A stretch of DNA of 57,880 nt, filler included, from Bipalium vagum (Eukaryota): NCBI GenBank assembly GCA_037834085.1. It is 3 parts of 3 records of this genome, joined end to end, with 100 filler letters (N's around TTAATTAATTAA, not from the genome) between each part and the next. Parts side by side here need not be neighbours in the genome. Positions count along the whole stretch, not along the records: positions 1 to 16,933 come from JBBMKC010085511.1; 2 more parts are not named here. One strand, 5' to 3'. Within the stretch, counting starts at the first letter, position 1; each line of letters opens with the position of its first letter. The notes beneath the pieces were generated by a model, which saw nothing but the letters and a program-made list of their open reading frames with translations, did not search any database and had not been told where the DNA came from. A program made the translations under genes and the position numbers. Of the stretch, positions 1-37,660 are shown one piece after another.

Positions 1-303
1 ATATGGGCTTCTGTTCAGACAGAGGCCTCCAAAGTACAGCACCCTAATTTGAAGTCTCTAAAGAAAGCTGTAACGAAAGCATGGGACAATCTATCTCAGG
101 AGTACATTCTCAAGACTTGCTCCAGATTCAGGTCCAGGGTTCAGGCCGTAATTGATGCTAATGGAGATCTTTTTGAATAATTGTTTTATATATGTATAAT
201 GTAATAAAATACATGTTCATATTTAGTTCTCAATAAAATTTTACTTTATAAATCTAATTTATATATTTGTGCATTTATTTCCGCGATTATACGACGCACC
301 CGG
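1..303 (+). mobile_element. 3' end of a Tc1/mariner-superfamily element (DD37D/maT-like), cut off by the window edge
   Basis: Frame 1 (1-180) reads IWASVQTEASKVQHPNLKSLKKAVTKAWDNLSQEYILKTCSRFRSRVQAVIDANGDLFE*, a typical Tc1/maT transposase C-terminus. It is followed by a TIR-like end ...GCACCCGG and TA at 304-305. Confidence 0.7.
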
Positions 304-399
304 TAGATCGATTATAAGCTGTTATCAAAGCTGATCTGAAAATAATTGCATGTGGAGTTGCAAAAATATTTATATTGCCTATACAACAGAACTCAGATA

Positions 400-990
400 T
401 TTAAAAATTAGAAAAATGAAAAATCTGTAAAAATGACTGTCATATGACTTGAACAGATACTAAAAATATCTTTCTTTACAAAGACTTGTTTCTGCTACGT
501 CTTTTAAGATATTACAAGAGAAATGATCTTGTCAGTGAAGAAATTTCACCTTAATTTCAAAAGCCAATGTTGCACAAAAAGAAGACTGGTGACTGTTTGA
601 TGGTCATATATAGCAAGATTCATTTTACTTCATTAAATAATGAACAATAACGATGAATAAATACGTCCAGTAAATCAACAACATGAACTTGAAGTTTTAA
701 CACTTAGTTCGAAATTGATCAGCAAGAATGACTGATCCTTCTATAAAATAACGCAAGGACTTTTACCCTTACAGACTCATTTGTATAAATATTATGTAGA
801 TATTCCATTCTATCTATTAATAAAAATTTCGAAACCACGGAGAAACTGTCTTTAAGGACTTCAAGACTACGGATTTTTATTAGACGAGTATGAATAGCCT
901 TTTTGCTTCAAAAAGTGTGTCGAATGATTATATGTGTTAGCTTAATATTTAGGGTCAAAAATCAGAAAATCTTTTGCTATAACCAAATAT
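400..990 (+). mobile_element. Highly decayed mariner transposase remnant
   Basis: Broken-frame remnants resembling the KP.LHKKK..VTVWW region (aagccaatgttgcacaaaaagaagactggtgactgtttgatgg). Boundaries are approximate. Confidence 0.45.
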
Positions 991-3900
991 TTTTGTTTGT
1001 CTAAACAAACTTAAGCAATAAAACAAAACAAAATTCATTTTTAAAAATATATTTTTATGACATCAGTAAAACAGTATTAGAAATGAAATTTTCAGACACG
1101 CAGTAAGTCATTATGAAATATATAGTTTACAATAGCCAGTTATAAATAATATAATTATGATAACGTATTATCTGTAACCTTTAAATTTTAAGTAATAAAT
1201 AATAAAACATTAAAATATGAATTATTCAATAAAATGTACCCGACTCTCAAATTTAATAATTATTTAATGTAGAAAGTGGACGAAAGCAATTCTGCAAATG
1301 ATAAGATACCATAACGTTTCCACTGATATCATCATTTATGACATAAACAATAACATTTTTTAAAATTAATAATTATTTTCAATAATATGCTGAACGAACC
1401 TTGTTGACGCAAAACGAAATATGAGATACGTGATTAAAAAAGATGGAGATGAAGCTGAAAACCATTGCTTCTTTGGTCTAATTGCTTTTCTATTATGATG
1501 GAGGAATTTTAAGTAAATTAATGACGCCTTGAATTTTGCCACTAAGCTTATGTCAATAGCCAATTTTCATTCTGTTTTGTTTTTCATATCGTTGTTATCA
1601 AGTCTTCAACGATAGTTTAAGTTCCAAAATTAAATCACAGATTTTAACCCACATTGTTTATATGGACTATTATTACTTTTGGAAGATATTCTCTGTAAAA
1701 TCATAAAAACAATTGTGATTTTGATTGCATTTTCGATTTGTTGTTTTACTGATTTCAAAAAATTATTTAGAATTTTATGGATCCAGAAAATGAACTCAAA
1801 ATATAAATTTTAAGATTTTTTAACATCATCCTGACCCAGTCCATATTTTTACAGAAAAATTGTAAAAAATATTTATACCACTGTCTTTATAACAGAAAAA
1901 TTGTATTTTATATTTTCAGTGTTTATCAATAGATACACAATCAATAATTAATAAATTAAAAAATAAATATATCCTATTGTGTGTATAAAGATAAATAAAA
2001 ATAAATTTCTTTGAAAAATTTTTAGTTAAAAAATTTATACGAAGTGTACTTCATTTTTAGATTAAACTTTGAATTTCAGCAATAGAACTGAATTCTTCTT
2101 CCGAAAGTGATGATTGTATTGATTGGAATATACGATTCCATGAGCACCCAAAACAAACCATAAATATTATGTTTTGGTGGTGATACATCGGGTTTGTTAA
2201 TATTCTTTGTTAGAAACATGTTGGAGAAATTGGGATTTATTCAAGGAACACATAGGTAAAAAATGTATTTAATCTTTAAAAAAAGTTTTTCTTTTATTTG
2301 GTTTCATACAAATCCTTTGTTTTGAATTATTAGAATAAGTTCAATTATTTTCTCCCATGACAAAAATTGTTCCTTTTCTGTTTTTGAAAGTTGAATTTTT
2401 TCCCTTCAATGTTTCTTTTAATTAATTCAAATATCACCAATTTTTTTATCACTTACATGCTTAGAGACACTGCAAAAGTATATTGCTAGATTACTTTAAT
2501 TAAACTGTCAATTCAGATGTGTTTGGCATTTTTTATTCTTTATCCTTAATTTTTTATCCGTTTATAATGATCTTTATTACTTTGTATTGTAATTGATCTT
2601 TTGAAATAGGCAAGATTAATCCAAACATATCCAAACATAATCCAGAACTGAAGAGACATTCTCAACTAATTTTTTAAAAAGAAACCAGTATTTCTGCTGT
2701 ACTTCTTTGGTAATATATTAATGTAACAACTTTCCGTAAGCGTTGCATTCTAGAAATAAATTTTGACATTTTTGAATTGATATCTTATTTAAACAAGTGT
2801 TTATTGATAAATTGTTCACAAAAAATTTTAAGTAATTATAATTAATGAAATATAATTTCAAAATTTTAATAAAAATTATAAGCTCGATTAAAAAATTTTA
2901 AATAGTTCTATTTAAAGAAGAATGAAAATGGTAGAGATTAACCTTCATGATTTCATGACATTAAAATGTTTTCAATGTGAATTAAGGGTGACCACTAAAT
3001 GGTACAATTGGAATTAATCAGAAAATAAGAATTTTTCAAAACAAGGTGCAGATGAGTGAAAAAAAATCCAGAGATTCAAAAAAAATCTTTAAGATATAGG
3101 ATTATTTTATTAATTGTATTGTGAGAAAGTTGATTGTTACCTTGAACTGGATTCTGTTGGCAATGTGGAGTGTAAATTTCGGAACATCGTCTGTTGATAG
3201 CGAAAAGCTTTTGTTGACCAGAATCATAATATCTGATCTGCATACACGTTGTATTAAAATTAATAACATCTTCGACATGGTACTCAAAATTCTTTAAAAC
3301 CATGTTCGTTTTTAAAAGTCCTGTGGATAACGATAAGCTGTTCGGCAAGACAGATTTGCCAAGCTCTACCGTCAAAGATATCCAATAGAATGTTGTACTT
3401 ACTGCCCTTAACATAAAATTTTTTAAAAAATAATCTAAAATTCATTACCTCAATAATAAAAAAATTTTAATAAATGGTACCGGATAATTTAATAATTATT
3501 TTTTCAAGAAAAAAGAAATGTGACGACATTATGTCTATCCGAAAAATAATGTATTCAAAATTTAAGGAAAACTACAAACTCTAACATAATAAATTATTAT
3601 TATTTATCATTTATACGTTTTATTTCAAATTACTGGGAAGATGGACTTTTTCATACAATTAAGGTGTCCCAAACTTTTTTGAAACAATCAACCCTTTCGA
3701 TTGAAAGTTTATAATAATAATTATATGTAGTCATAAAATTAAACGGTTGAAATTGGACTTGGATCAGTTTTGCTTAAAGGGCTTCTTTGATTTTTAAAAC
3801 TTTTTATTAAATTTATATAAATTTTATTATTGAAAATGTTAATAACTCTCTTCAGGGAAAATATTGAATTCAGATTGAAAATTTTCAAAAATTAATTTTA

Positions 3901-5055
3901 TTCCACCTTTAAAATATTTATAATTAGTCCGTTAAAACAAAATGGTGTCAAACGGAATTTAATCCAATTAAAGAATATAAATATGGAATTAGTCTGGTTA
4001 TCCGCGTCTTTTAGATAAAGAATATTTTGCAGATGCTCAACAAAGTTATTTTAAAAAGTCACTGAAAGAAAAATGATGAAATATAGAAAAACCACATAAG
4101 ATTTATTAAAAATGGTTAAAAACAATTCTCATGATATTAGAGACTGAAACTTTGTGAGGACATTAATTGAGATTAGTTTGAACATTTAATAAAATAAAAT
4201 AAAAAACTTATTTATTTGTTTTCGTAAATTTTAAAAAAATTTGAAATACCCTACATATATTGCAATAGTTTTTGATTTCCTGGCACCGATGTTTACCAGT
4301 GTGAATGGATTACAAATGACGGAAAATTCTGATTTTGAAGAACAAAATTTATAATTTTTGTTCAACATAAAATAAGATACTTTCCATTAATATTACCTTG
4401 TATTTTATGGAATGTCGGACTAGCAAGACATTTAATTGATGACGTCAAACTTAGGTGAAAAATTTACAAATCAAAATAATTATAAGACCTTTTATTATAT
4501 ATATATATATATATGTGTGTGTTTTCTCAGCCTCTTTTAGAAAAGGAACTGGTTTTCTTAATATTTGATGTTTCAAAGTCAAAAAGAGGTCGTAATCAAT
4601 TATTAAAATATAAAGAAGCACTTGTTTTCTGTATTATCAAAACCACATTATCCGTTTTACTATTTACTCCTACACTATCAATTTTTCGTCGGGTATCAAA
4701 ATTCTTAGCAGAATGGTTATGTATTTCTCTAGTATACAAACTGAAAAAATCTCAAGTCTTTACATCATCTTTATGTCATTAATTTCATAGGATATTCATT
4801 TTTAAATAGTCTATGCCTTAATATGATTACTAATGAGTTACTATGGACTTACAGATAAAGAATTCTTCATCAACAAAATAGGTCTTTGCATGTACGAGTT
4901 TATTTTTGAAGTCATTTTTTCTGGAATGAATATTTTTTAATAATCTTCACAAGACAACATTTCAAAATGGCTTCTCACATTTCTGTTGTCGAGATATGTT
5001 AAAGTGTTCAAAAACTACCACTACATTCAAAAAAGTAGTGCTTAATTACTTAGAA

Positions 5056-5087
<32 letters not shown>

Positions 5088-5544
5088 TCCATCTTTTAAA
5101 ATTAAGCATAAAATAAAAGGAGATGTCATTTGTAAATGAGAACATGTAAATTAAAAATATTAAAAATCAACAAACTGGCTCATAACTGCAAGATATTCTG
5201 ATTCAGATTCAAACCAAAAGAGAGTTGAAGACCTTTTATGACAATATCCGTAAGCGTCACTATAGAAAACTGCAGTTTCCATAAAAAGATAGCAATTTAC
5301 AGATTTAGGAGAATTCATTCGAATTCCTATCCATCCATCCAAACAAGTTTTATTATCTAAATTAGAGATTCGGTCATTGAACAAAACTGTAAAATCTCAT
5401 AAATCTGAAAGTTTTTTTATAAATCATAATAATAAAAATCTAAATTTAGATATTTTCAGAAAATAAATGAGGTTTTAAGAAATTTTAATTAAAAAACTTC
5501 AAGTAATACATTAAACCCTACCTTACGATTTTCTCATTAGCGGC

Positions 5545-5546
<2 letters not shown>

Positions 5547-5609
<63 letters not shown>
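5547..5609. repeat. (AAT)n microsatellite, intronic
   Basis: Direct reading, about 21 units. Confidence 0.95.
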
Positions 5610-5612
<3 letters not shown>

Positions 5613-6639
5613 TAATTAAAAAAATTAAAAAACCTACTAACATTTTCAAAATATTAATAAAATTCTTCTTAATTACTTTTAACATTAAAATAAATACATA
5701 TTTTAAAATATTTTAAATACATATTATTAATTAAATATATTATTAAAAAATTATTATTAATAAATAATTATTATTATTGCCGTATTGATAAACTGCTTAA
5801 TAATTTAATACAGACTTTAATTTATAATAAGAGGCGTGATTGTGATATTATTAATTCAATATTTAAAATGAAAAAAAGTTTGTCCCAATTCAGAGTTATA
5901 TTTTTGTGAGGCTTTCAACATCATCACTTTTTATATATATTTTTATATTGTGAAAAATAAATAATGACCTGAATTCTTCGGCACTTTGCATATAAACGAA
6001 TAAAGTGCAGAGTTGTTATTATTGAATGTAACAACCCAGGGATTTTTAGTGGTAGTGTAGTCGTAGATTTTTAGAATGGCAAAATAATAATTATTTGCCG
6101 TGCACTTTGAAGGATAAATAATGTGGACGTTAGAGGTTGTGAAATCAAAGTTATTGAACCCTTCATTTAAGAATATTCGTATTGCAATATTGGCCCAATT
6201 TTTGTTACTAAATTTTAAAATAATTATAATTATTAAAATAAAATATTTACCTCACGTATATGACCAAGTTTTCTAATTGATCTTTTGTAGTTACATTTAA
6301 AACCTTATCTTTATCAGAACATTTTTCCATATATTCTGTAAGTGATACTGCAATTATTTAGTTATTAATTTGAAAATATAAATTAATTAAATATTATCAA
6401 AATAATTTTAGTAATATAACAAAAATAAATTATATTTCAAGTTTAAAATAATCAATAAAATTGGAAAAATCATTAAAATTATTAAAAAGCATTAAACTCA
6501 TTAAAACCTAAACATCAAGGGTGCAGAAAACTTATTAGCAAAAAATATTCATTTTGGTATGTTATTTTTGAAGAATAGAACATTTTTTACTAATCTAATA
6601 AGAACTGACTTTATCTTTACATAAAATTGAGAACATTCT

Positions 6640-7035
6640 AAAGTCGGAAGACCTTCATTGATGGGCAATCAAATTTTGATACATTGATTGAATCAGATCA
6701 GATGCAAAGTTGTGAAAATTTATCAATTAAGATGTCAGTCAACAGAGAAATAATAAGAGATCATTTAGGTTAAATCGGAAAGTCTTTCGGTAAGAATTTG
6801 AATGCAAGACAAATTTAAAGAAAATCAAAAATCTTCAATAAATACACTTTGCAATTCAACTTTTGTTCTTAATGAAAAGAACTCCCTCTTAAGCAACTAA
6901 TAACATGCGAAGAAAATTTGGTTATTTATGACAATTCACATAAATTAAACCAAATATTAATTCTAAGTGAATCAACATTCCCGTCTTCAAAGGCAAATCT
7001 TCATAAAAACAAATCATTATTGCCTGTTTTGTAGG
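6640..7035 (+). mobile_element. Mariner transposase remnant (HTH to first catalytic region)
   Basis: Broken frames read SGRPS..LIESD..IRDHLG..LITCEE..IYDN..KANLHKNK. Confidence 0.65.
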
Positions 7036-7038
7036 GTT

Positions 7039-7491
7039 TTAAATTATAGTTGATTGTGAAGCATTTAATTCTGAGGATAATTTTCTTGTGCTTATTATTG
7101 GATTTGAATTAACTTCATCTTTTAGCAGCTTAGAATCAAAACCAAGTTGTCGTCCTTTATGGGATGCATAATCCAAGCTGGTTTCATCATTTTTAAAATT
7201 TTTGAACCATTCTTGTGAAGTCCGAATTGATGTTGGTCCTTCACCCTCCACTTTAGATATCTTTCTTGCTGCATATATTGCTTTCCAGTTTTGTTTCCAG
7301 TAATGTTTCAGAATGGCTCTGATTTCAATAGTAACTCATTATAAATAAATACACATTTTAATATTAAAACAATCAGCATGGTATGTGATATCGTTTGATG
7401 ATTATTTCCATCTGTGAAAGTTAATATACTTAAAATATTTCATTATAGAGAAAAATTGTAAAAAAACGCGAGTTATTATGACTCACCCTAA
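7039..7491 (-). mobile_element. Mariner 5' half with TIR
   Basis: ORF 7039-7251 (RTSQEWFKNFK..GRQ..STRKLSSEL) matches the mariner HTH region. A TIR-like TTAGGGTGAGTCATAATAACTCGCG is flanked by TA at 7492-7493. Confidence 0.8.
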
Positions 7492-10400
7492 TAGAATAGA
7501 AAATTTTTCTAGAATGAAGAGACATTGTTATATGTTGTGAGTTTCAACCATGAGCATCTCCCGAGTGATCAAGTAAATACTCAAAAAAGTAAGTGGTTTT
7601 TACGTCATGGAAAAAATTGGTGAGTTTTTAATTGATCACTTGAGAAATTCCCTTGATTGGAACTCAGAACATATAATAATATCTGTACTTTGGTTTTTCA
7701 CTCATGGAAAAAAATTTTCTCCTTCCACTTAAAACAAGTAAAATCTTTATTGTTGATTGTGATTAACATATGATTTACAATTTCTGTATAGGTTGCCCAT
7801 CTTTCAATATGATTGATCATTATTGAATTGAATGTGATCACATTTGTAAAAAGTAAATCACCAAAGAACTTACAATCAAAAGATGTTGATGATGCAGACT
7901 GAGTGATACATGGGGTGTTTTGTACAGATTCAAAGCTATCTTGAATCATGAGTGTACTCAAATTTTTTAGTTGATAAGTAGAAGCCATAATAAAGTTTCC
8001 ACTTTGAGAAATATAAGAATTTTTATATTTCGAATCTAAATATGAGATTTTCAGAAAAGTTATTGGACATGGAAAATTGGTAAAATAAATATTGATTGTA
8101 TTATCATTCGTTTGGTTTGTATTCACTTGATAATTCAACCATAATTTTTCGTCTCTGAATAAAAAAAATTGGTCATTCTTCTATAATATTAGAAAAAAAA
8201 TAATAATAAAAATCTACAAAAAATACTTTTTTAATTTGATGCAATGAAATAATAATTGGGATCAAACTTAATCAAAGAAAGGTAACTTAAATATTAACAT
8301 CCAAACAGGAGAGGGCAAAGATCAATTGATAGTTAATGTTTTCTGTGATTAATTGAAAAGATAATTTTGTCAAATAATAATTAAGAAAAATAATCTTATT
8401 TATAAAGTCATTTAACAAGTTAAAATGTAAATATGAAAAAAAATTTTATTGGCTGACGAAGAACTGAAAAGAAAAGTTCGAAACATGTTTCAAAATAATA
8501 AATATTTGAATAGATTTTGTTTTAATTTATAAATATTTATTTATTGTAACCTGTTGCTAAGTTGAATTTTTTAGATAAATAAAGATTTATCACAAAATTT
8601 CTTGTAATTACTTTTTTCTACGCACCTTGTATATTATGGATTTTGTGTAGAAAATATAAAGACTTCATAATTTTATTTTTGTAAGAGTCTAAGGACTTTA
8701 TCTACAACATGTAAAGCATCGATCCTCTTTCTATTTTTCAATCCTCAAACACACGGTAATAAATGTCTTTAAAAAGAATCAAAAAAATATTTCATTTGAC
8801 TAACTCTTTAGAATCATATAAGAATCGGGGTAAATTAACGTTGTCATTAAACAGTTCAGATCCCATACTTTGACAGGTGTTAACGGCAGCTGTAAAATTA
8901 TTTGATGAGTTGATTTTCAGATAGCAAAATCCATTCAAGTTGGTAAACCAATTGGTATTTGAACATACTGATTTTTCTATAAATTATTTATTTATATTTT
9001 TTATCAAAATAAAAATATTTACTAGATAATATTGGTGCCATACATATGTATTTAAGAGAATTATTTTCGCAGTTTACTAAACTGTGCTGAACGCTGAAAA
9101 CCTCCATATTCGTCAATGAAATACAGTTCATGTCCAAAGATTCTGGATAGGTTTTAATCAGAGCATTGGAGAAACTTATGTACTGTTTGTTAGTTTCGTC
9201 AACTATGCTCAAAGCACCATAATTTACAATGTAGTTTACCCATGTCTCCATTCTAGAAATTATGTCAAATTAATTAGTTAATTAAAAGCATTAATTGAGT
9301 AATTTACTTTTGTCAATCAAGGTTATTTTACTACTTTGGTTATGACATGTTTCGAAAATTACAATGACAGGTCTTGTATTTTTATTGCGTAAAAAACAGA
9401 AAAAGTTGCATTTAATAAAAAGTGCAATTATTGAAAAGATTGTGATTTAAAATTAAAAGTCGCAACAAACAAAATAAAAATTCAAGTTTTATTTATTTGA
9501 TTAGAGTTGATCTTCTAGATTATAATAATCAATAAAATGTTTGGCTATGTTTTCATCATGTCATCTTTACCTAGAAATTTCTATAAAATAGAAAAACTTC
9601 TTTCAACAGAACCTGGTGTAGCTTGGTAATTCTCAAGTAGAAGATATGAACTAGATGGAATATCGGTTCGGAGCAGCGTTGACATTTTAATAAAGTCTGC
9701 CTTCGTCATTAAACGTTTTTATAAATATTATTTTAGGACATATTGGACAAATCATTATATGATCACATAATATTATAAGTTGCTTTTTCTGACTTATCAA
9801 TCCAGTCAATTAAACAGTTGTAGTCCTTTTGATAACCACAAAACTTATGTAATTCAATATTATGTAGAGCGTTCTTTACATTCTGCACCAACAAACCTTC
9901 CTCATTAAAACTATTCACCATATTTCGTATCCTAGATATAAAATCTGCATAATAAATGTTTGCTTTTAACTAAGATCCTCAGCGTATAATGACAGGCGTC
10001 GGATGTATACTGATTCCTGATATTATTCATAATATTGGAGTCTATATTTTCCTGTTATAATGTTTATGTTCATCAAGTAATCCTCGTCAAATTCCCTTTT
10101 TTGTTTCAGGTTATATAGTTATACTTTTTAATCAAATCATTAATTTAATGTAATACAATGTAACTTATTTTGTTCAATAGTAAAAGCAATTTCTTATTCA
10201 AAAATGCAATTGACCATTGTGGAAACAGAATTCTTAATTAATCTAATTATTTTCCAATTACTTTAAATGAACTTTCATTTTCTAAATTATCAAGAGACTC
10301 CAACCTCTTTACAGAAAAAGTTTTATTTGATATCTTTCTAGTATCATAAATAATAGTGATCATCATTTCATTATATGGAAAAATAATTTTATAGTTGCGG

Positions 10401-10954
10401 AACTTATTAAATACTAATGCTATGCCTAATAGCCTAAGAAAACTTAAAGTAAAAATGTACAAACAGACAAAATATTAGGTATTTGTTCTAGTTTGTGAAT
10501 TTTTATAAATAAAAGTAAAAAACTGAAATAATACACTATAACAGTAGTGGTGCTAATTTTTGCGCAAGAAATGTATACGTTCCGAAAATACAGGTAAATT
10601 AATAAATTAAATAATATTTTGATTAAAAATTAGTTTTTACATTTTTATTAATTGTTACCTGCGATATCAACAAAATCAATCATATTTTGAACAATATTTT
10701 TTGAATGCTTTTTAAAACAATAATACTTAAACAAATTTTCCATTCTTAATAAATTAATATATTGTGCCATTAAAAAATTATTTAAAAATAAATATTAAAA
10801 TTAAATTCAATAAATATTAAAATTAAATAAAATAAATATTTTAATTAAATTAAATAAATATTAAAATTAAAATTAAATTAGTTAAAATTTTAAATTATGC
10901 ATAATATATAAATTTAAAATCAGTTTAAATAGTCACATTAATAATTTTTCAAAT

Positions 10955-11097
10955 ATTAGGTGGATAGCAAGTATTTTCGCTATTTTATATAAAAAATAGA
11001 TAATTTTATAATTAAAATAACCACACTTTGCCAAAGTTCTAGGAATTTATAACACATTTTAAAAAATTTCCGGATTATACTTGCTGAACACCTTGAT
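10955..11097. mobile_element. Small MITE-like element with mariner-type ends
   Basis: Imperfect inverted ends: TTAGGTGGATAGCAAGTA versus the reverse complement TCAAGGTGTTCAGCAAGTA. Confidence 0.4.
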
Positions 11098-11149
11098 TTT
11101 TTTTGATTTCGTAGAAAATATCAAATGTTAATAATAAAAAGAAGTAAAA

Positions 11150-11869
11150 TAATCTAAGAAGTAAAGTGTAAATTCAGAATTCTGCAGTGATAGTGTCTCC
11201 ATATGCAAAGAAATCATAATGAATAATATCGTCATAGACCATCAAACAGTCATCATTGCCTTCCTGTGAATAATCATTCGCATTGAAACTGTTCTTAGAT
11301 CTTTGTTTATCCACTAGTCAGAAAGTCTGATGTTGTTAAAATATATTCATTTCTAATCACAATTAATAATTCTTTTTAGTAGAGCCTCGTTTCTGTTTCT
11401 TAGCAATAAAGAGTAACAAATGGAAAAACGCTGATTTTTGCAGTTTTCATTTAATTGATGTGGGGCCTATTTTTGAAGCTTCTTCACTTTTCTAATTTTC
11501 AAAGGATGGTCACAAACTGTGGTATTTTCAGCTCAAAAAATCCCTGCAAGTCCACAAGCTGATTGTTGAAAATTGGACTTCATAATGGCTTTTGAATTGT
11601 GTGCAGCCTCTGGTATATTTCTCTTTAATATAAATTCATTTAATAGACTTGTTCAAATTTGTGATGTTGTCATTGTCTCTTTCATAGAGTTTCATATTAC
11701 TCAAACAAACTGAAAATAGTAAAATAAAGTTTAATTTCAATAAAGGCTTATCTATCCTAATATATTCTTAATCTAATGTTATTGTTATAAAAAAAGTAAT
11801 CGAAATCTTTATATATTTTTGTTTTAATGTTTAATATAGAAAAGTAAAAATACTTTTCCCTCAACCTAA
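11150..11869 (-). mobile_element. Decayed mariner in an intron of the lectin gene
   Basis: TIR TACTTTTCCCTCAACCTAA+TA at 11851-11871, with an identical 21-mer at 47652-47672, plus degenerate transposase frames. The left boundary is approximate. Confidence 0.6.
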
Positions 11870-13340
11870 TAGTTAAAATTAACAAATTATCAAATTAAAA
11901 AAGACATTAATTTTTTAAGTCTAAAATTCCAATATAATAAAAAAATTAATAATAATAATTCTTATAATAATATTATTATAAAACTATCATTATGCATTAA
12001 ACACACATGAATAAATTCTTAAGTTAATAATAGCACTTGATAAATTGAATTAGTATTATTAAATAATTCGTTAAATAAGTTAGATACAAATTTAGTGCTC
12101 ATACTTTACATCGGTACGATTTAACAGAGTGGCATTTAAAGCTTGGCACTCTTTTCTAGCTTCAAAAAATTGAGCTGAATTTATTCTCTTATAGCAGTAT
12201 GGATTATCTGATTCCGACTTGAGCCAATTTTGTTCGACATTACAAGTAGTCGCAGTTTCAGATCTCACTAATTAACATTTTATTAACACAATTAAAAGTA
12301 AAAAATAATACCCCTTTGATATGAAAATATTAAAGTAAAGGAAAAAATTATATTAATTTTCATTTCTAATTGTCTTGCTTAATTTCTTTGAACTTCTTAC
12401 ATTTATTCATTTGTTCTAACCAATAAAAATGAGATAGATGTTCATTGGCAGAATGTGAAAGAATTATTGATTTAAGGATTAAATTAAAACATTAAATATA
12501 TTTACTAATAAAATGAAAAATTTAAAAATGACTTATAAAAAATAAATAATAAAATTATTATTATTGGTTGAGTAAAATTTTTTTGTTATTTTATATTGGC
12601 TTAAATAAGAAAAATATTGAAAGTCTAAATCATTTAAAACATAAGAGGTACATGTTTTTAATAGTCAAACTAGCACGCTCATTGTAAGTACATTATTCTT
12701 TAAAAATTATTCTTACCGCTCCTCACATAATTTTTTTATGGAACCAAATGTGAGAAGTCATTTGGTGCAAATCATGACTATGAGATGGATGACTTAATAA
12801 TTCATTTAAACATTAGTAAAAATTTAGATACAAAGGTACCTTTTAAAAATGGTTCTAATAAAAGTACTAAAGAAAAAAAAATATCCACGTTTTTCTAAAA
12901 ACAGGAAGTGACATCCAATCAGCTATCACAGATAACATATTTTTAAATAAATCTACAACAGAAAAATATCCAAGAGAATTACATTTAAAATCCGTAAACC
13001 CTTTTAATAAAAACAAATGTTGTACATCAATTTACGGGTCAACTGGCTCGATTGAACTTTTCATAGAAGTCTGATAGTGTTTTGAATTTCATGTAAAATG
13101 CACACAAATCATCAAATTGCGGGAATTTCCTAAAGTTTTTATTTACCAGTTAATCAGAGAAATCTTTTGAAGGATCTCAGGTAATGATTGATCTCGATAG
13201 TAGAAACAAAGAAAAATATCAGCGAAGCCTCGTGCAGATATTCTGAATATGGAAAATCCTCAGCTAGGCTGCAAAGTTTGACAGTGTCTCACAAAGATTT
13301 GTTGAGTTCTTTATGATAAGAATATGGAGAAAGTTAAGAA

Positions 13341-13511
13341 ACTGTTCCTTTAAAAAATAAGACTTGAAATTTATAACCGATACTTTTGATGAAATATTTT
13401 GAGACTACCAAAGCAAGCCTAAAAAATTTTGAGTTGATAAAAGAACTAATTTACAATAAAACATTTGAGGATTTTTGTGATGATAATGAAATGGAAATCC
13501 ATTCAACAGAA
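13341..13511 (+). pseudogene. Second, inverted copy of the integrase core fragment
   Basis: Aligns by eye to the reverse complement of ~15465-15628 (ctgttcctt..aaaaataa..ttttgatgaaatattt..gagactacc..cctaaaaaattt..gagttgataaa..tacaataaaacatttgag..attcaacagaa), with many substitutions. Confidence 0.85.
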
Positions 13512-13919
13512 AATAAAGCCTCAAAATGATGGTGATAAGATCTTAAAGTTTATTTAAACGCAATTTATTAAATTAATAAAAAATATTTATATTTTTCTAT
13601 CATGAAAATTGCATAAATAATCAAATTCATCTTTTTCTATAAAAGTTGCTAATATTTTAGAATATATGTATTTTAACTCTATCTGATTTTGAAATTTTAA
13701 ATAAAATTAGAACATTTGCATTATTTCAAACACTACTTAATGCTAAATCAAAACATGATTGAGATAAATATATTACAGAATATTTATTATTATTCCTCTT
13801 GTAAAATACATTTTCATAATATGTTGATTTTTTTTTCATTTATTACATTATTAAAAATAATTATTTTTTTAATCTCTTATCTAATTTATCTTATTTATTT
13901 ATCTAATTCATTACCTTTA

Positions 13920-14457
13920 TCAGATAAAGTTTTTTTATCTATCTTTGAAATTTTAACTGCTTTTAATTCATAATAACCTTCAGTATCATATTTTTTCAAA
14001 TCCTAACATGTTACCAATTGAATTTTCTGGAAAAGAAAAAGTATAACCCTTAAATATTTTTATTACTCAGTTTGAAAAAATTTGATTATCACTCATTGTT
14101 ATATAATACTCTTCTGGTTTTAATGGTTTTAATCCTTTTATACTTTTAAGTCCTTTCTCAACATATGTAGATGTATCAGAAATTTCATATGATCCTGGAA
14201 TTAACTTTATCTGTCGAGACTATTTTTTCATTTTGAATCTGTATCAGTTGCATCTATTCATTTATTTTTTCATAAATATTAAAAAAAGAATGATATATGT
14301 TGAAAAATAAATAAAAGCTAATTCATAGTTAAAATTAAGATCAAGATTTAGTAGTGTATCTAACTTAAATGTTATACCTGAATCTTTACCTTCTACAATA
14401 AACGATGTTGAAAATTTTTGAAATAAAAAATTTAATATTTTTTAGAGATTCTTCCAT
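13920..14457 (-). pseudogene. Polinton minor capsid (penton) protein
   Basis: ATG at 14457. Frames read STSFIVEGKDSGITFKLDTLLNLDLNFNYELAFIYFSTY.SFFNI..IKLIPGSYEISD..LGFEK..GYYELKAVKISKID, matching the recalled penton pattern LD..YE.AL..TY.S..NI..IP.GSYEI.D..LGF. Confidence 0.7.
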
Positions 14458-14499
14458 TTTTAAAACAGTAGCATATTTTAATCAGAATCTAGATTAAAT

Positions 14500-15330
14500 T
14501 TAGTTTTTATTTTTTCACAATAATCATTTTGGATTTTTTCATGCTTTTTCAATTTATTTAAATTTTTTAAACTTAAATGATCAACATTTTCATGACCAGC
14601 TTTTTTATCAGATAAATATTTTCTTAAAGTTATGAATTTCTCAACTAAATATTTTGGTTTATAAATTCTATAACCTTCTCCATCTCTTTATATTTGGTGA
14701 TCTTTAAATACTTCATTTTTTTACTTGTAATATATTTAAATTTCTATGATCCTTCAGTAAGTTTTGTTATTTGAATATAAGTAAGTATATTCTTTTGATC
14801 AATTTATTTTTTTTATTTTGTAGAATGAAATTTTTCCTCAATTAAAAATATTTTAAATCATCAGTTAATTTAAATAATTTTTCATCATTTGGTTTTGGAT
14901 CATTTGGATTACTATATTTTAAAAAAATGTTTACATTTTCTTTAATAATCAAAAATTGAATTTCATTTATTATTAATGTGTTACCTATAATTGATGGAAT
15001 TATGGTTTAAAAAGAAGTGTATAAATCCAAAGTTAAAGATGATGAAATATTAATTGGTTGTATGCTAAAATCTATTGGTGTTTTTTAATCTATTATAATG
15101 TTATAAACTTTTTCATTTTTTCCTAATTTATTAGACAGTGTCTTTGTGTTTAGCGCATCAGTAACTGGTCTATGAAAATATATTATATCTTGTTGTATTC
15201 CTCTTTCTGTTTTCCGCTGATTTAACTGATTAGTTTCAAATTTATTTTGTGTTTCTATTAATTTTTCAATTATTTTTTTAAGATCAATTGAATTTTGATT
15301 TGCTGAAGCTAAGCCTCCAGGAACTTCGTT
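14500..15330 (-). pseudogene. Conserved Polinton ORF of uncertain function (possibly a core protein)
   Basis: Remnants KLTEGS*KF and NLVEKFITLRKYLSDKKAGHENV resemble the T.GLWEL and LVERL.LL...K.AGN motifs recalled from Maverick ORFs. It lies between the integrase and the minor capsid gene. Confidence 0.45.
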
Positions 15331-15439
15331 TGCATATATTTTTTATAATTTAAAATATCTCACTTATTTAAATTTTTGAAATCTTTAAAGTTCGCATCTT
15401 TCCTTTATACTCTTTTTTAATCTCTTGTTTCAATTCTGC

Positions 15440-15800
15440 TCTGATCATAGCTTCTCCTCTATTCTCTGTTGAATAAATTTCATAATCATCACAAACATTC
15501 TCAAATGTTTTATTGTAAAATTCAGTACCTTTATCAACTCAAATTTTTTAGGTTTTTTGGTAGTCTCCAAATATTTCATCAAAAACATCTGTTATAAATT
15601 TTCCAGTTTTATTTTTTTAAGGAACAGCTAAAGCATTTCTTCTGTATAAATCAATAACTCTTAATATTATTTTAGTTTCTTTCACCCGATACAAAGGTTA
15701 AATCTGCAGACCTAATATATATATATATCATCTTTGTTATAAACTTAAACCTTTAAGTAATTTTTAAGCTTTCTTTATAAAGTTCATTTGCTAATTTTTT
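15440..15800 (-). pseudogene. Polinton-type retroviral-like (rve) integrase, N-terminal to core portion
   Basis: Broken frames read KLANELYK..KVYNKDD..SADL..VID..AVP*KNKTG..PKK.*VDKGTEFYNKTF..EIYST. This fits the recalled Maverick integrase consensus LA.ELHK..W.ADL..AVPLKNK.G..PKKLWVDKG.EFYN..YST. Confidence 0.8.
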
Positions 15801-15818
15801 CTATTTTCTGGTTTTATT

Positions 15819-15903
15819 GCAGTCGTTTTGATTCAATTATTTGTGAACAAGACAGAAGTGACAGGGTCAGTAAATTTACGAGCTGTGTTTTGTATAGTTT
15901 CAG
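15819..15903 (+). repeat. Dispersed ~90 bp repeat, copy 1 (copy 2 at ~21545-21635)
   Basis: Both copies share agtcgttt(t)gattcaattatttgYgaacaag..gacagaag..acagggtcagtaaatttacga. Confidence 0.85.
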
Positions 15904-16933
15904 TATTATAAAGAGTAACAAAAGTTATCCTTGAAACTAAAACAGTTCAATTTTTTGTTATAAAATTAATATAATCTCATTTTCATGTAAACATGTTAGT
16001 ACTAGAATTTTTCGTTCAATATGTTACTATTTTATACATAATAAATATTAATTATCACAATTTAGCTTTAATAATAAATATTTTTAGTAAATTAAAATTC
16101 CACAATTTTCATAAAACAAGAATCATTTGATACTTATTTAAAATTTGAAAAAAAGAAACTTAAATTTGAATTTTAAGAAAAATTTTTTATTAAAAAGACC
16201 TTGAAAACGTCATTTATGTACAACAGATTTACTTTCTAAATAAAGTGTATATTTTATTATTTGATAATATTGAAAACTAGATCTTATTTTGGAAAATTAA
16301 ATAAAATAAAATAAGTTTTCATATTTATTTATTAAAATTGTCATATTTGAAATATAACTTTCAATCAGAACCATTTAAAAGTCATCATTTTATTTAATAT
16401 TAATTCAAATATTAAATATAAATTTTATGAAGCTGCATATGAATACTTTCAAAATATGAAACATTTTATGCCGCAACATTTGCAAATGATCATTAAGTAT
16501 AAAGAATGTGCAATAAAGTATTGATTGAACAATTATTTGTATTAATTTTTTATAAAAATGTTTATTATTGTGAAATGCTGAAATATATTATGCTATTCTT
16601 CAACTTGTTCCCAAGGCTGTTTCCCTATTCAAGTCATTTAAGAAAGATGAATTTGATTTTTTTGTTAATAAGTAACAATTTTTAGTTTTTTTTAAAGTTA
16701 TTTTTAATAAATATTTTATCTTACAATTTAATAAATAGAGTTATGTATTTTCTTGTTTAAATTAATTATAAAGGAAAAAATTAGATTATTTTATTAAAAT
16801 AATTTTACAAAAAAACATGAAGAAAAACTAATACTCTAAAATTTAAAAATAGAAATGGATATTCAACATAAAATAGTATAAAATTTAAGATAATAAACAA
16901 ACTGGAAAAGTTGTTTTATTGATCATTTACTGA

Positions 16934-22981: not shown

Positions 22982-24393
22982 TTGGGTTGTAAAGTTCAAA
23001 ATCCAACTAATACAACTTACATTTAAAATAATGAATTTTTACATAAATAAAATAAGAAACTTAACAAAAGTAATTTCCATTGTTATCTATGATCTTTTGC
23101 CACCTTATAGGTAAATTCATGATTCTTCCTCATAAAAAATGGTGGGATTAGATATAAAAAATTGCCAAAGGCGTTTTTGATATCGACCTCTTTAGAAAAT
23201 TCTTTTCCATTCAGATAATTTTGAAAAGACCTGAACAGATGATAATCTGAAGGCGCAATATCAGGTGAGTACGCCGGATGATGAAGAACTTCCCATTCTA
23301 ATGCCTTTAATTTTTCTTGTACGATTTTTGAAATATGGGGTCTGGCATTGTCATGTTGAATGATTACATTCTTTCTGCTTATCAATCCTGGTCTGGATTT
23401 TTTTAATTCTACCTCAAGTCTTCCTAATTGGTCACAATAAACCTTACCTGTGATAGTTATGTTACGTGGAAAAATATGATATATAGTTTGTATTGTGTAT
23501 ATAATAAATCTTCCTGTGAGTATCGTTATATATTATTCCACGATAATCCCACCACGATAATCAATAATAATAAATCCCAATAATAATTAAAGATTATTAA
23601 GATAATTAATCCCACCACGATAATCCCAGGTCTGGTTTGGCAGTGGGTATCGGCTTCTGGCCAGGCGTAAGCCATTGTTTTTTCCTTTTCATGTTGACGT
23701 AGCACATCTACTTCTCATCTCCTGTTACAATGATTTTAAAAAAATTATCGTTATTGAATCTTTGGTAAAGAGAAGAACAAGTCAAAAATCTGCGATTTTT
23801 GTTGTTTTCACTTAAGCAATGAGGAATTCATAACCTTTGCCAATGGACTTTGTCTAATTGATGAAGATGAGTGGCAATGGTAGTGTGCGAAACCTGAAGG
23901 TTATCTCCCAAGTGGAGCGTTGTACACATAGAATCTCCCTCGATAAGAGATAGAAGAACATTGTTATAAATAATTTTACAGGTTCATTAATTAATGAATT
24001 AATGAATAGTTTCACTTAATTAATTTAATTTTTAAAGATCATTCCGCCTTTAAATCTTCTAAACCATCTTTGACATTTATCTAGTGACAGATTACATTCA
24101 GGATAGGTTGTTGATATGTTTTTAAATGCATTTAAGCTGGTTGATCCCTTTCTAAATTCATATATCAAACAATGCCTGATATGAATTTCTTCAGCATTCA
24201 TCTAAAATTAATTTTATCTAATTATTTAAAATGTTAAAATTTAATGTTAAAATTATTAAATCAAACTAATCAGTAAAACAACATGTTAATAACATTAAAT
24301 AAATAGTAATTATAAATTTGTTTATTTATTGTTGAGAAATATTGTCTCGAAAATTAGTTTATAATAAGTTGGATTTTGAACTTTACAACCTAA
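22982..24393 (-). mobile_element. Full-length mariner (DD34D) with an inactivated transposase
   Basis: Near-perfect TIRs TT(G/A)GGTTGTAAAGTTCAAAATCCAACT with TA at both ends. ATG at 24201; motifs IVTGDEK, HDNARPH and YSPDIAPSDYHLF. Confidence 0.95.
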
Positions 24394-31610: not shown

Positions 31611-33575
31611 ATGTCAACTTTGAAAAGTATTATTTTTTTATAATTAATTTAAGATAAACTCCCTTCAGAATATTCAAGTCTGTTTAAGGAAAAGTCTTCA
31701 AATATTTCTGGAAATCAAAAGCCAGAAGATGTTAAAAGATCTCCTTTGAAGCAAAACAGCAGAAATGATATAAATTCAAACGACATGAAAGAAGATAATA
31801 AGCATGTTTCTGAGCAAGTTCCACAAATAATCGAAAATAAAAGAATTGTATTTTCTCGAACTGAGTTATTGAAATATAAGTCCTTTAATCGTGTTCCAAA
31901 AGATCTTCCTGTAACAAGTGAATGGTTTCAGGAAATCCACATTGTTAAGAATAATCAACTTTTAAAGAAACCGGAAGTTCAAGAAGTCAAGTGGTTAAGA
32001 GAAAATAAAATTAAAAAACTTGACCACCATGAAAATGGTTATTTACCACCTAAACTTAGAGCGCATAACTTAGACGCCAAAGAAAAATTTAGAAGAAATA
32101 TTAAGAGAACATTAAATCGAATGACACCTGAAAATTTTCAAAAATGTGTCCAAGAAATCACAGATTATAAAGCCTCACTCGACTTTGACATTGTTATCTT
32201 GACAGATGAGCTATTCGATAAGGCTATACAGGAGCAGTCCTATTCCAAGACTTATTCGAAATTTTCCACAATTATTAATAAATTAGAAGAGAACAATAAT
32301 CAATTTAAGAGTCTCTTATTGAAAAAGTGCAGAATGAAATTCGAAAAGCCGCTAACTGAACAAACGGAAAACGTAAAACGAGAATGGATGGAAAAGGTTA
32401 AAAATGAGAAGGATGAGCAAATGAAAAAAATTCTTTTGTCAAACATTGATGAACAAGTCGCAAAAACCAGAGATCAGTTTTTTGGAAACATTCGTTTCAT
32501 ATCAGAATTGTATTTGGAAAAGATTTTGGCCGGAAAAGTAGTTCTGCATTGCTTGGAAACAATATTAAAAAATCCGGTTGAAGCGTTTTCAATAGAAGTT
32601 GCATGTAATATGTTTGAGATTTGTGGAAAATCTCTGGAAGTCTCATTCGGATCACAAGTCGAAAAGTTGCTTCATAAACTGCTTATGTTGTCCAATTCAG
32701 AAGAACTAGATATGAAAACGAGATTTAAAATAAAAGATATTTTGGATATGAAAGGCCGAGGTTGGGAACTGAGACACATTCAAGCTGTAAAGATCGTGGA
32801 TCCTAAAACTCTTGATGAATTAAAAAAAGTGGGAGGTGAAATGACAAGAAATGTTCTTTTAAAAAAAAAGAAAGTCTCAAAAATGATTGATAACAACGCC
32901 GAAGTACGGACTCAAGAATCAGGCGAAGATGATAAATGGAATACAGCAAAGAAAAATTGTAGAATAAATAACAATTTGGAAAATCATAAATCACGACCGT
33001 TAGAGGTCATCAATAAGTTCTGTTTTTTCCAAGAAGAAAATGGGACTGATTCAGAAGATGATAAAAACAGTTTTTTTGTTTCCAAAGCAAATGAAACTTC
33101 AGAAAAGAATGATGAACTTTCAAATAAGTTATTCAAAGATATTTTGGAAAACAATGCGCAGTTAGAACGTTGGTATCAAATTGAAAAACCTATTGAAACC
33201 ATTGAGATCTGGGTAGATAAAATTCTAGAGAAGAAAAAGCAAGATCGTGTTCTTCTAGGAAACTATTTTCGTGAATTAATTAATAAGAAAATGCTGAAGA
33301 AGAACGATTTTTTAGCTGGTACTCAATATTTGTCAGAGTCTCTTGAAGACCTTTTGCCAGATATCCCAATGCTTTGGTTATTTTTTGCCGAATTTCTTGA
33401 AAGATTCATTGAAAATCACAAATCAGATATTGGATTCTTTAACAAATTTTTCGAAAGGATTCCGGATAAAAGTGGTGTGACCAAGTGCTATTCATTCCTA
33501 CGAGATTTAGCAATTAATCGAGTTGGGAAAGAAATTGTGGAGATTTTATTTAAGAAATATAAAATTAATTATTAG
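31611..33575 (+). CDS. eIF4G: Compact eIF4G-family translation initiation factor (4E-binding-like motif, MIF4G, MA3), ~640 aa
   Basis: MIF4G motifs LNRMTPENF, LFDKAIQEQSYS..YS, GNIRFISELY and RFKIKDILDMKGRGW..PKTLDEL; linker DDKWNT and NKF; MA3 LEDLLPDIPMLW..AEFL; N-terminal RIVFSRTELL. The frame is open upstream to an acceptor at 31668. The proposed exon 1 (31611-31626, followed by a 42-bp phase-1 intron) is an inference, and 31460-31475 is an alternative. Confidence 0.9.
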
Positions 33576-35724: not shown

Positions 35725-37660
35725 TTAATGAATCGAAATCGACTGATCTGGTAATTTAAGAGACATGGCAAACATAAGATTGAGCGGTCTGTCACATTGA
35801 ATATCGATCGGACATTGAGATGTGTGAACAACGGGCGACGAAGACAATTCCATCATTTCGATTCTGTGCAAATAGACGAGACACGTTTTCCTGTTGCCAG
35901 TTCTCAAATCGTAAATATCTACATGATCGTTGGATCTCTTGGATCCCTTGTTATTACTGGCAACTGTACGGCAGCAGTAATCAATATGGATACTGTCCAT
36001 GATATTCTGTCCAATGGACACAACGTTCCAAATGGAACTTCGCAAATGGAACAAGGCTACCTCGTGGCGAACCCCGCCGTCCCAGGCGCCACCGTAAACA
36101 ATCACCAAAGGTGATTCACCATTGGCCATCATTTCCATGCGATGACCGGTCATGCTGAACGGCAAATTGGGATAATCGATTAACGATGACGTTTGTAGAT
36201 CGATCAGATAGAAAGTCTTGAGATATTTCTGAAGACTGCGCCCGCCCGAGACAAAGAATCGATGTTGTTCACCGTGGCTGGTGCGCGTGTCGCGACACAC
36301 ACTGCTGGACCAGCATGCTACTTTCAGACGGATATTGTCGACTTGTTGCCACGTGTTGTCTTGGAAACGGAATTTGACAATATTACCTGATGGAACGGTC
36401 TGGTGTGAGTGGGTGAAATAACAACCTCCGAACAGGAACAGTTCCGCATCACAAAGAACAACAGAAAAGCCCCAGAACTTGTGGTAGTTTTGCATGTGGT
36501 CAGTAGAGCTGGTGCTACTGGTTGTTTCGTTGTTATGGAAATGATATTGCCAACGAGAAATTGGACAGTGACGATAATTGACGAGATTGAGAACGGCACC
36601 CAAGTTCCCGTTCAAATCCCAGTCCTTATTGATGAAAATCAAATGATTAGCAGATGTTTGATGTCGAAACCTGTCCGAATCGATGTCAATCACTAACCGA
36701 TTGTCATGGTCGAAATTTGTGAGCGAGATTTTCGACAGGATCAAAGAATTGTTGGCCCCAATCGATTTGATGATGAGATGAGGCGTTGAACGGCATTGAA
36801 TGATATGTTTCGTTTTAGAATCGTAAGCGTCGCTATGAAAATTCATTTGACGGATATTTTCAGTGGGTAAATTGGAAAGAAGCTGTTGCAAATCGTCACA
36901 AGTTTTGTCAGACCAGAGAAAATTGGTTCGAGACAGGTAACGATAGAAACTATCTATGCTGACGTTGTCAAGCAATCCGGGCCGAATTGAATCGATCAAT
37001 TTCTGTCGGAACTCTATCTCCAATGGGTCTGATGTGTGAGTCAAAAAGAATGAGAGAAATTCCCAAAGAACGTTTTCATTGACTGTGAAATTCTCCATTT
37101 CTAAGATCTTCACCAAAATCTGGGCCGGTTGTACAATCAGATTGGAATATTCCCTCAAATTTATATATTCAATAAATTGATTTTGTATCTTTAATTTTGT
37201 TTTAACCAACGGATAAGCGGACAATTTATCGAATTCCTTGCACAAGTCCAAAAAGGAAAACTGTTCTGATATTTTGAAATCAATCATCCTTATCAGGTCC
37301 ACCATTCTCAAATAATCGGAAGCTTCTATTACTTCAATGTAAAATGATAGATCATATTTCGACTGGGATTCGGGAAGTCGTAAATAAATATAATCAAAAA
37401 TATAATTGAAAACATCAAAATCAAGTGAAGGAAGATTTATTATTCCCGTAGAAACTTCTTTACAAACATCACTGTTTAAAAGAGCTTTGAAAAATTCACT
37501 ACTCGCTGCTAACACCAACTTATGAGCCTAACTAATATTGAAATATAGTAATAAAATGTAACAACACCTTTATTGATCCGTTAATAAGTGTTATTTGAAT
37601 ATCTGTAAGGAAATTGTTAATTTGAAATTCGGAAAATATCTCGAAACGACTTAATTCCAT
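35725..37660 (-). CDS. BTB-BACK-Kelch protein, divergent kelch-like, 631 aa, 2 exons
   Basis: Exon 37660-37568, a 40-bp GT-AG intron and exon 37527-35725 give ..FLTDIQITLINGSIKAHKLVLAASSEFFKALL (BTB), a BACK-like LEMENFTVNE..IR..LL and kelch motifs LFLFGG, FFVSGG and IVYGG with downstream W. Confidence 0.92.

Follow-up and report, generated by a model that had tools for sequence, protein, structure and literature searches.

A degraded Polinton/Maverick relic in Bipalium vagum belongs to a multi-copy family that may carry long, gene-bearing inverted arms

We examined a 57,880-nucleotide stretch of the Bipalium vagum genome assembly GCA_037834085.1 (filler included; hereafter the window), in which parts of three records are joined end to end, and focused on a locus at positions 12815-15816, within the part that corresponds to contig C85511 (positions 1-16933). 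The original prediction, made from the sequence alone, had described three adjacent pseudogenes on the - strand, in the order integrase, a conserved open reading frame (ORF) with an AG[H/N] motif, and a penton-like protein, and had interpreted them as an old integrated, capsid-encoding Polinton/Maverick fragment. Six-frame reading bore out the three genes and their order, with stops and/or frameshifts in each piece, and sibling comparison extended the locus to the following features.

12815-13051, + strand: remnant of the 5' PLA2-like part of a PLA2-rve integrase fusion gene (tblastn, blastn, 5' extension).
13052-13341, no strand: non-family filler, where siblings carry ~570 bp of the PLA2-integrase gene; it includes 70 bp of another repeat (13150-13219).
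13342-13518, + strand: second integrase-core fragment, pointing towards the ATPase (inverted 83% match of 15457-15627).
13569-13946, - strand: C-terminal remnant of an A32/FtsK-type packaging ATPase pseudogene (tblastn/blastn to siblings).
13933-14459, - strand: N-terminal ~60% of a penton (single jelly-roll minor capsid, Polinton PX) pseudogene (homology to P0001).
14481-15330, - strand: conserved Polinton AG[H/N] ORF, broken, upstream of the penton (six-frame reading, sibling comparison), hereafter the AGH ORF.
15396-15442, - strand: last codons of the final accessory ORF of the family's arm, here called UP1 (sibling comparison).
15444-15816, - strand: integrase-core fragment, cut at both ends and fused to the UP1 tail by a local deletion (Pfam rve, sibling identity).

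We consider it very probable that 12815-15816 represents one dead member, shortened by internal deletions, of a multi-copy Polinton/Maverick family; in it, inverted integrase pieces flank a truncated block of AGH ORF, penton and ATPase, and it likely derives from a two-armed ancestor. That the stretch holds a real Polinton relic at all is close to certain. The ATPase remnant (-), the PLA2 piece (+) and the second, inverted integrase piece (+) had been overlooked at first reading; major capsid and polB genes are absent from this copy, as had been noted, whereas the ATPase, also listed as missing, survives as the A32-type remnant at 13946-13569. A search for DNA matches of the locus within the same genome, in which 40 of 4308 candidates were scored, returned 57 matches, the best others being 72-84% identical, so that the three-gene pattern is not a product of chance.

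Relative to its siblings, the copy has lost material in three places: from the 3' half of the integrase through most of the last arm ORF, with a junction near 15444; across the penton end and the ATPase start, a loss of ~570-670 bp in six of the seven siblings measured and 387 bp in one; and the major capsid and polB genes, which come after the ATPase in siblings. The first of these deletions was seen only at this locus among the scored matches, and in the family ~3 kb of other genes normally lie between integrase and AGH ORF. The adjacency of integrase and AGH ORF emphasized by the original prediction is therefore a product of deletion in this family, while elsewhere it is a real Polinton motif, as described below. 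We rejected misassembly at the 15444 junction since an exact 253-bp contig of run X1, which may be the assembly's own source, bridges it; for the 13518-13569 junction, bridging by contigs of run X1 was not shown. Beyond 15816, the sequence of three contigs of run X1 departs from that of the assembly, so that the right edge of the element may exist as a second allele or in a related copy. No tandem repeats were found at 12000-16933.

The integrase fragment at 15816-15444, with stops read as X, matched Pfam rve at E 2.6e-6, below the curated cut-off. No meaningful match was obtained for the remaining frames of the 15 scanned against Pfam; a STING_LBD match (E 0.03) was dismissed as noise. The fragment is 53% identical to a sibling integrase and 44-52% identical to five external homologs, and blastp against the sole Gypsy-like comparator, an integrase of the same genome, gave nothing at E<=10. 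The natural sibling frame combines PF08398 (PLA2) with an rve domain scoring above the cut-off, and the integrase zinc-binding Pfam domain, which we take to be an N-terminal feature of Gypsy and Ginger integrases, was not among the matches listed. The PLA2-rve pairing recurs in most of the top external homologs. On the + strand, the PLA2 piece matched the sibling PLA2 ORF (tblastn of 12877-13056, E 1e-13) and more than 30 sibling loci at 74-83% by blastn. Judged by sequence, the integrase is a PLA2-rve fusion of Polinton type rather than a Gypsy integrase; the alternative raised at the outset, a grouping with Gypsy or Ginger, is not supported, given 44-53% identity to Polinton-type integrases and the lack of a match to one Gypsy-like integrase, the sole comparator of the Gypsy/Ginger kind. 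Related integrases are present in 33 long metagenomic or viral loci (two of them the same contig), 21 of which also match the penton profile, and in 6 of the 33 integrase, AG[N/H] ORF and penton naturally follow one another in this order, which makes the gene order first read in the window a real Polinton motif.

In the AGH ORF, the predicted motif was recovered as KKAGHEN at about 14606-14586 (AGH motif start 14600), and across 10 copies it reads AGH in eight, AGN in one and AGY in one. Pfam gave no informative family for this ORF or for the penton, and the N-terminal piece of the AGH ORF had no homolog among longer proteins, while a sibling piece matched ORFs of metagenomic Polintons (E 1e-4 to 1e-7), where AG[N/H] ORFs precede pentons. 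Of the motifs proposed for the penton, IPGSYEI and LGF were confirmed (YELAFIYFSTY...IPGSYEISD...MLGFE); the spacing given as TY.S..NI was approximate only. The natural sibling frame of the penton recovered three homologs among 119 candidates, whose profile matched 2,927 representatives at E<=0.001. One natural homolog, P0001, is 46% identical to the window frame over 153 residues and was folded from an alignment of 142 rows, out of 153 proteins available, giving a model with a predicted local distance difference test (pLDDT) score of 96.8. Its best structural match was the mavirus virophage penton (PDB 6G41/6G42; Foldseek E 3.9e-12; Z 13.7, root-mean-square deviation 6.9, 236 aligned), a relative in fold only at 12-14% identity, followed by capsid or penton chains of PBCV-1, Sputnik and adenovirus; against a viral library, the structure matched minor-capsid, adomavirus LO5, MELD and adintovirus proteins. 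An Atlas search with the penton returned hypothetical clusters only, and scanning IMG/VR with either the penton alignment or P0004 returned nothing. The modeled fold of this homolog confirms the window's penton-like gene as a single jelly-roll penton, in agreement with what had been suspected for the 14457-13920 peptide. Together with the integrase similarity, it supports the reading of the locus as an old capsid-encoding fragment. The ATPase remnant matched a sibling piece by tblastn (E 3e-9), itself a Pox_A32 match in Pfam (E 1.5e-6), and siblings by blastn at 70-83%.

The sibling copies supply the genes that the window copy lacks. Genome-wide, PF21738 (double jelly-roll (DJR) major capsid) and PF03175 yielded 122 and 75 matches, respectively, figures that include other lineages and are not copy numbers. 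Three PF21738 matches lie on contigs that also match the window's penton, and the collinear sibling L037 matched at E 1e-18. On sibling contigs, ATPase and then major capsid follow the penton, with polB convergent. The linked polB pieces match, at ~30-50%, a polB frame found by PF03175 at E 7e-13, one of them with Endonuclease_7; they correspond to the L017-type polB and not to that of L016, the genome holding two divergent polB types. One further sibling ORF is a likely protease, as phmmer matches to ORFs of related elements suggest; it carries the motif HW..FDS.G..Q..CG, which we take to be an adenovirus-like cysteine protease signature.

The original prediction had also called for intact relatives with terminal inverted repeats (TIRs) and 6-bp target site duplications (TSDs). 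Both were found in siblings, while every family copy examined was broken or deleted. Element ends begin AGTAGTATGT (AGTAGT-tipped TIRs), and exact tips number 118, compared with 15 for the reversed control. Among the four elements with both tips, L096 and L097 have an exact 6-bp TSD, in L098 a 6-bp match adjoins a degenerate tip, and L036 agrees at 3 of 6 bases. Terminal branches measure ~0.07-0.14 substitutions/site near the window copy and 0.01-0.07 in a younger clade. These copies seem to form a large repeat family of the genome that had not been annotated before. Separately, L097 (2963-3387) and L109 (828-1469) share a nested end, TIR, PLA2 gene start, TIR, AGH ORF, which suggests partial copying of one end onto the other, and in L058, L063 and L066 copies abut or lie inside one another, a TIR standing immediately next to internal sequence of a different copy. 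The loci L016 (C202218), L017 (C207192), L023, L025 and L026 hold divergent polB types and a divergent DJR capsid, and represent further Polinton lineages or co-sequenced organisms.

We next consider the ends of the element. The arm runs from the TIR through PLA2-integrase, a small ORF and the likely protease to two accessory ORFs. Its length is 5.2 kb in L099 and 6.4 kb in L189, values that may include insertions in either case. The 44 places (window included) at which the sequence upstream of the AGH ORF was compared divide into 26 with the arm's last ORF, 10 with a short TIR and 8 unclassified. Those short-TIR copies whose length allowed placement in the tree belong to the younger clade, intermixed with arm-type copies. 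In six short-TIR copies, the AGH ORF starts at about the position that the PLA2-integrase start codon occupies in the arm. At the opposite side of the core, the sequence upstream of the polB start was scored at 30 loci, drawn from 41 matches of a younger-subfamily query (40 of 144 candidates scored): arm genes were present at 23, the adjacent small ORF only at 4, nothing recognizable at 3, and a TIR at none. At L188, L041, L186/L187 (whose protease pieces are 74-86% alike) and the window, one and the same contig carries arm pieces on either side of the core, and L097 carries TIR plus PLA2 sequence at both ends inside its exact TSD. In a tree of 41 arm-end copies (23 polB-side, 17 AGH-side, one unassigned), copies of both sides share mixed clades with 94-100% bootstrap. 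The two window integrase pieces, 83% alike and in opposite orientation, both belong to the same older group.

Taken together, arm pieces on both sides, mixed clades and arm genes next to polB make a long inverted arm at both ends the simplest reading of the older form. We slightly favor the view, built from fragment overlaps, that the older subfamily, window included, had a 4-5 kb arm inverted at both ends; the UP1 tail at 15396-15442 would mark the window copy as of this older type, with the arm before the AGH ORF. A younger form has a short TIR on the capsid side. The balance tilts just as modestly towards arms of ~4-5 kb that act as TIRs duplicating the PLA2-integrase, protease and accessory genes, with the younger form having lost its capsid-side arm by a start-codon-to-start-codon join. 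In the window, the inverted integrase pieces on both sides are then likely explained by an ancestral element with a long gene-bearing arm at each end.

Several observations weigh against this two-armed reading. No whole two-armed element was seen on one contig, and chimeras of repeats are possible in an assembly as fragmented as this one (272,664 contigs). Young copies are over-represented in the polB-side sample, and the most divergent of the arm-end copies sampled are all from the AGH side. In the window, a TIR search over the stretch gave no match, with no TIR tip upstream of the PLA2 piece and no TSD at the locus, and the two integrase pieces did not resolve as sisters in a tree from which two poorly aligned rows had been dropped, sharing 3 rare sites with each other and 3-4 with other copies. 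The protease candidate gave nothing relevant against Pfam, PDB or, pairwise, P0122. The two metagenomic relatives whose contigs have a repeat at each end show one integrase and TIRs of ordinary length, 584 and 285 bp.

Three other explanations were weighed. In the first, which we regard as unlikely although it is the strongest competitor, the same Polinton family has one integrase arm and short TIRs, its central block exists in two orientations, and the two-sided copies are recombinants between isomers. The one-armed form with a TIR directly before the AGH ORF is indeed real and complete in L036, L096 and L098, and both forms interleave in the younger clade. Yet such isomers call for a short TIR beside the polB start, which was seen at 0 of 30 loci, and the arm-before-AGH copies L179, L041, L051 and L188 carry convergent polB pieces. 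Less probable still is a purely local origin, in which the pieces stem from two or three separate family insertions, or from an inverted duplication at this locus, and decayed next to each other. Neither outer junction of the locus is clearly common to the 39 other scored matches of each search, the window's two arms are not sisters in the tree, and nested or neighboring copies exist elsewhere (L058, L063, L096). Against this, the UP1 tail places the - strand integrase in the exact position and orientation of the family arm, both integrase pieces fall in the same older group, and the two-sided pattern recurs on other contigs. A Gypsy/Ginger integrase beside an unrelated beta-rich ORF, with no virus-like element, could be argued from the sub-threshold rve score and the penton's lack of a Pfam match, and is refuted to the point of being negligible by the missing match to a Gypsy-like integrase of the same genome, the PLA2-rve sibling frame with no zinc-binding integrase domain listed, the penton fold of the homolog, and the linkage of capsid, ATPase and polB in siblings.

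Under the two-armed reading, the family layout, pieced together as a gene order from overlapping broken copies, would run from the TIR tip through PLA2-integrase, small ORF, likely protease and two accessory ORFs into a core of AGH ORF, penton, ATPase and major capsid, meet a convergent polB, and end in the same arm inverted. In adenovirus, a panhandle intermediate homogenizes the two ends; in the family, one arm may have been copied from the other during replication, perhaps in this manner, although the literature search on panhandle-type repair of ends yielded no direct source. Loss of the capsid-side arm would put the AGH-penton-ATPase-capsid block directly under the terminal promoter. By analogy with Polintons, pPolB would copy linear DNA from the TIR ends by protein priming, the ATPase, capsid, penton and protease would build icosahedral particles, and the rve integrase would insert the element with a 6-bp duplication; protein-primed replication, possible icosahedral particles and rve integration are described for Polintons in parts of PMC11161782, PMC6431247 and PMC4028283. 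The window copy itself is presumably inert, with no part functional today.

The family shares with Polintons/Mavericks (Polintoviricetes; the animal 'adintoviruses') an rve integrase, pPolB, A32 ATPase and DJR major capsid, as well as a single jelly-roll penton one gene from the major capsid gene, TIRs, a 6-bp TSD and degraded endogenous copies (compared with portions of PMC4028283 and bioRxiv 10.1101/697771). It differs in that the window copy is a ~3 kb dead remnant, in that PLA2 is fused to the integrase, whereas theirs is a separate PLA2X gene, and in its putative arms of ~4-5 kb, compared to usual TIRs of 100-1,500 bp according to a part of PMC10748475. PLA2 appears as separate ORFs in sections of 10.1101/697771 and PMC5803895, and PLA2 genes are noted in sections of PMC3671162 and PMC11296320. 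Metagenomic Polinton-like elements (e.g. L242, L247, L256) resemble the family in a PF08398+PF00665 fusion at ~40-58% identity and an AG[N/H] ORF directly before the penton, but they have one integrase, their TIRs are short wherever an end is visible, and their ATPase and polB mostly lie at a different position. The closest parallel comes from butterfly Polintons, for which a part of the Pannagram study (10.1101/2025.02.07.637071) describes core genes duplicated inside TIRs, as we propose for the family, and polB-less derivatives; there, hexon and adenain lie in TIRs of ~2 kb shown in whole insertions, whereas the family's arms would hold PLA2-integrase, protease and accessory ORFs over ~4-5 kb, on the evidence of fragments. 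Literature searches for integrase-bearing long TIRs or PLA2-integrase fusions turned up no precedent other than this one and showed no long TIR that bears an integrase; Repbase and bioRxiv supplements may hold one.

Elsewhere in the window, 31653-33575 (+) is one open frame of 640 codons whose MIF4G and MA3 domains make it eIF4G-like, and a GC-rich patch holds one BTB-Kelch open frame of 600 codons at 35725-37527 (-). Mariner/Tc1 transposase fragments lie at 7039-7335 (-) and 23083-23532 (-) (HTH_48; weak DDE_3). A multi-exon host gene at ~7690-9300 (-) has cysteine-patterned repeats that gave no Pfam match and that, by eye, we take to resemble C-type lectin. The assembly contains three cox1 types (L223-L226), two of which, 79% alike, look to use the flatworm/echinoderm code, the flatworm look resting on motifs that we assume to be diagnostic. 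These two types show ATA=Ile, AGR=Ser and TGA=Trp, with AAA at conserved Asn sites in L223, a codon use that suggests a flatworm host. L226 is a decayed copy, 92% like L224, and in L225 ATA seems to code for Met. More than one organism may be represented in the assembly.

Fossil Polintons are widespread and have been described in planarians before: a part of PMC8532177 describes Polintons as PIWI-interacting RNA (piRNA) targets in Schmidtea, and a part of 10.1101/2025.04.19.649669 reports Orthopolintovirales insertions in Rhabditophora. The relic as such is ordinary, and its value is its family. If the long-arm layout is true, a multi-kilobase TIR would bear an integrase, arms would reach about three times the usual upper TIR length, and long-arm and short-arm forms would coexist in one genome. 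By expanding and contracting their TIRs, these viruses would then be able to rewire gene dosage and expression, and such changes in TIR length could, should the layout hold, be tested in protein-primed elements by comparison alone.

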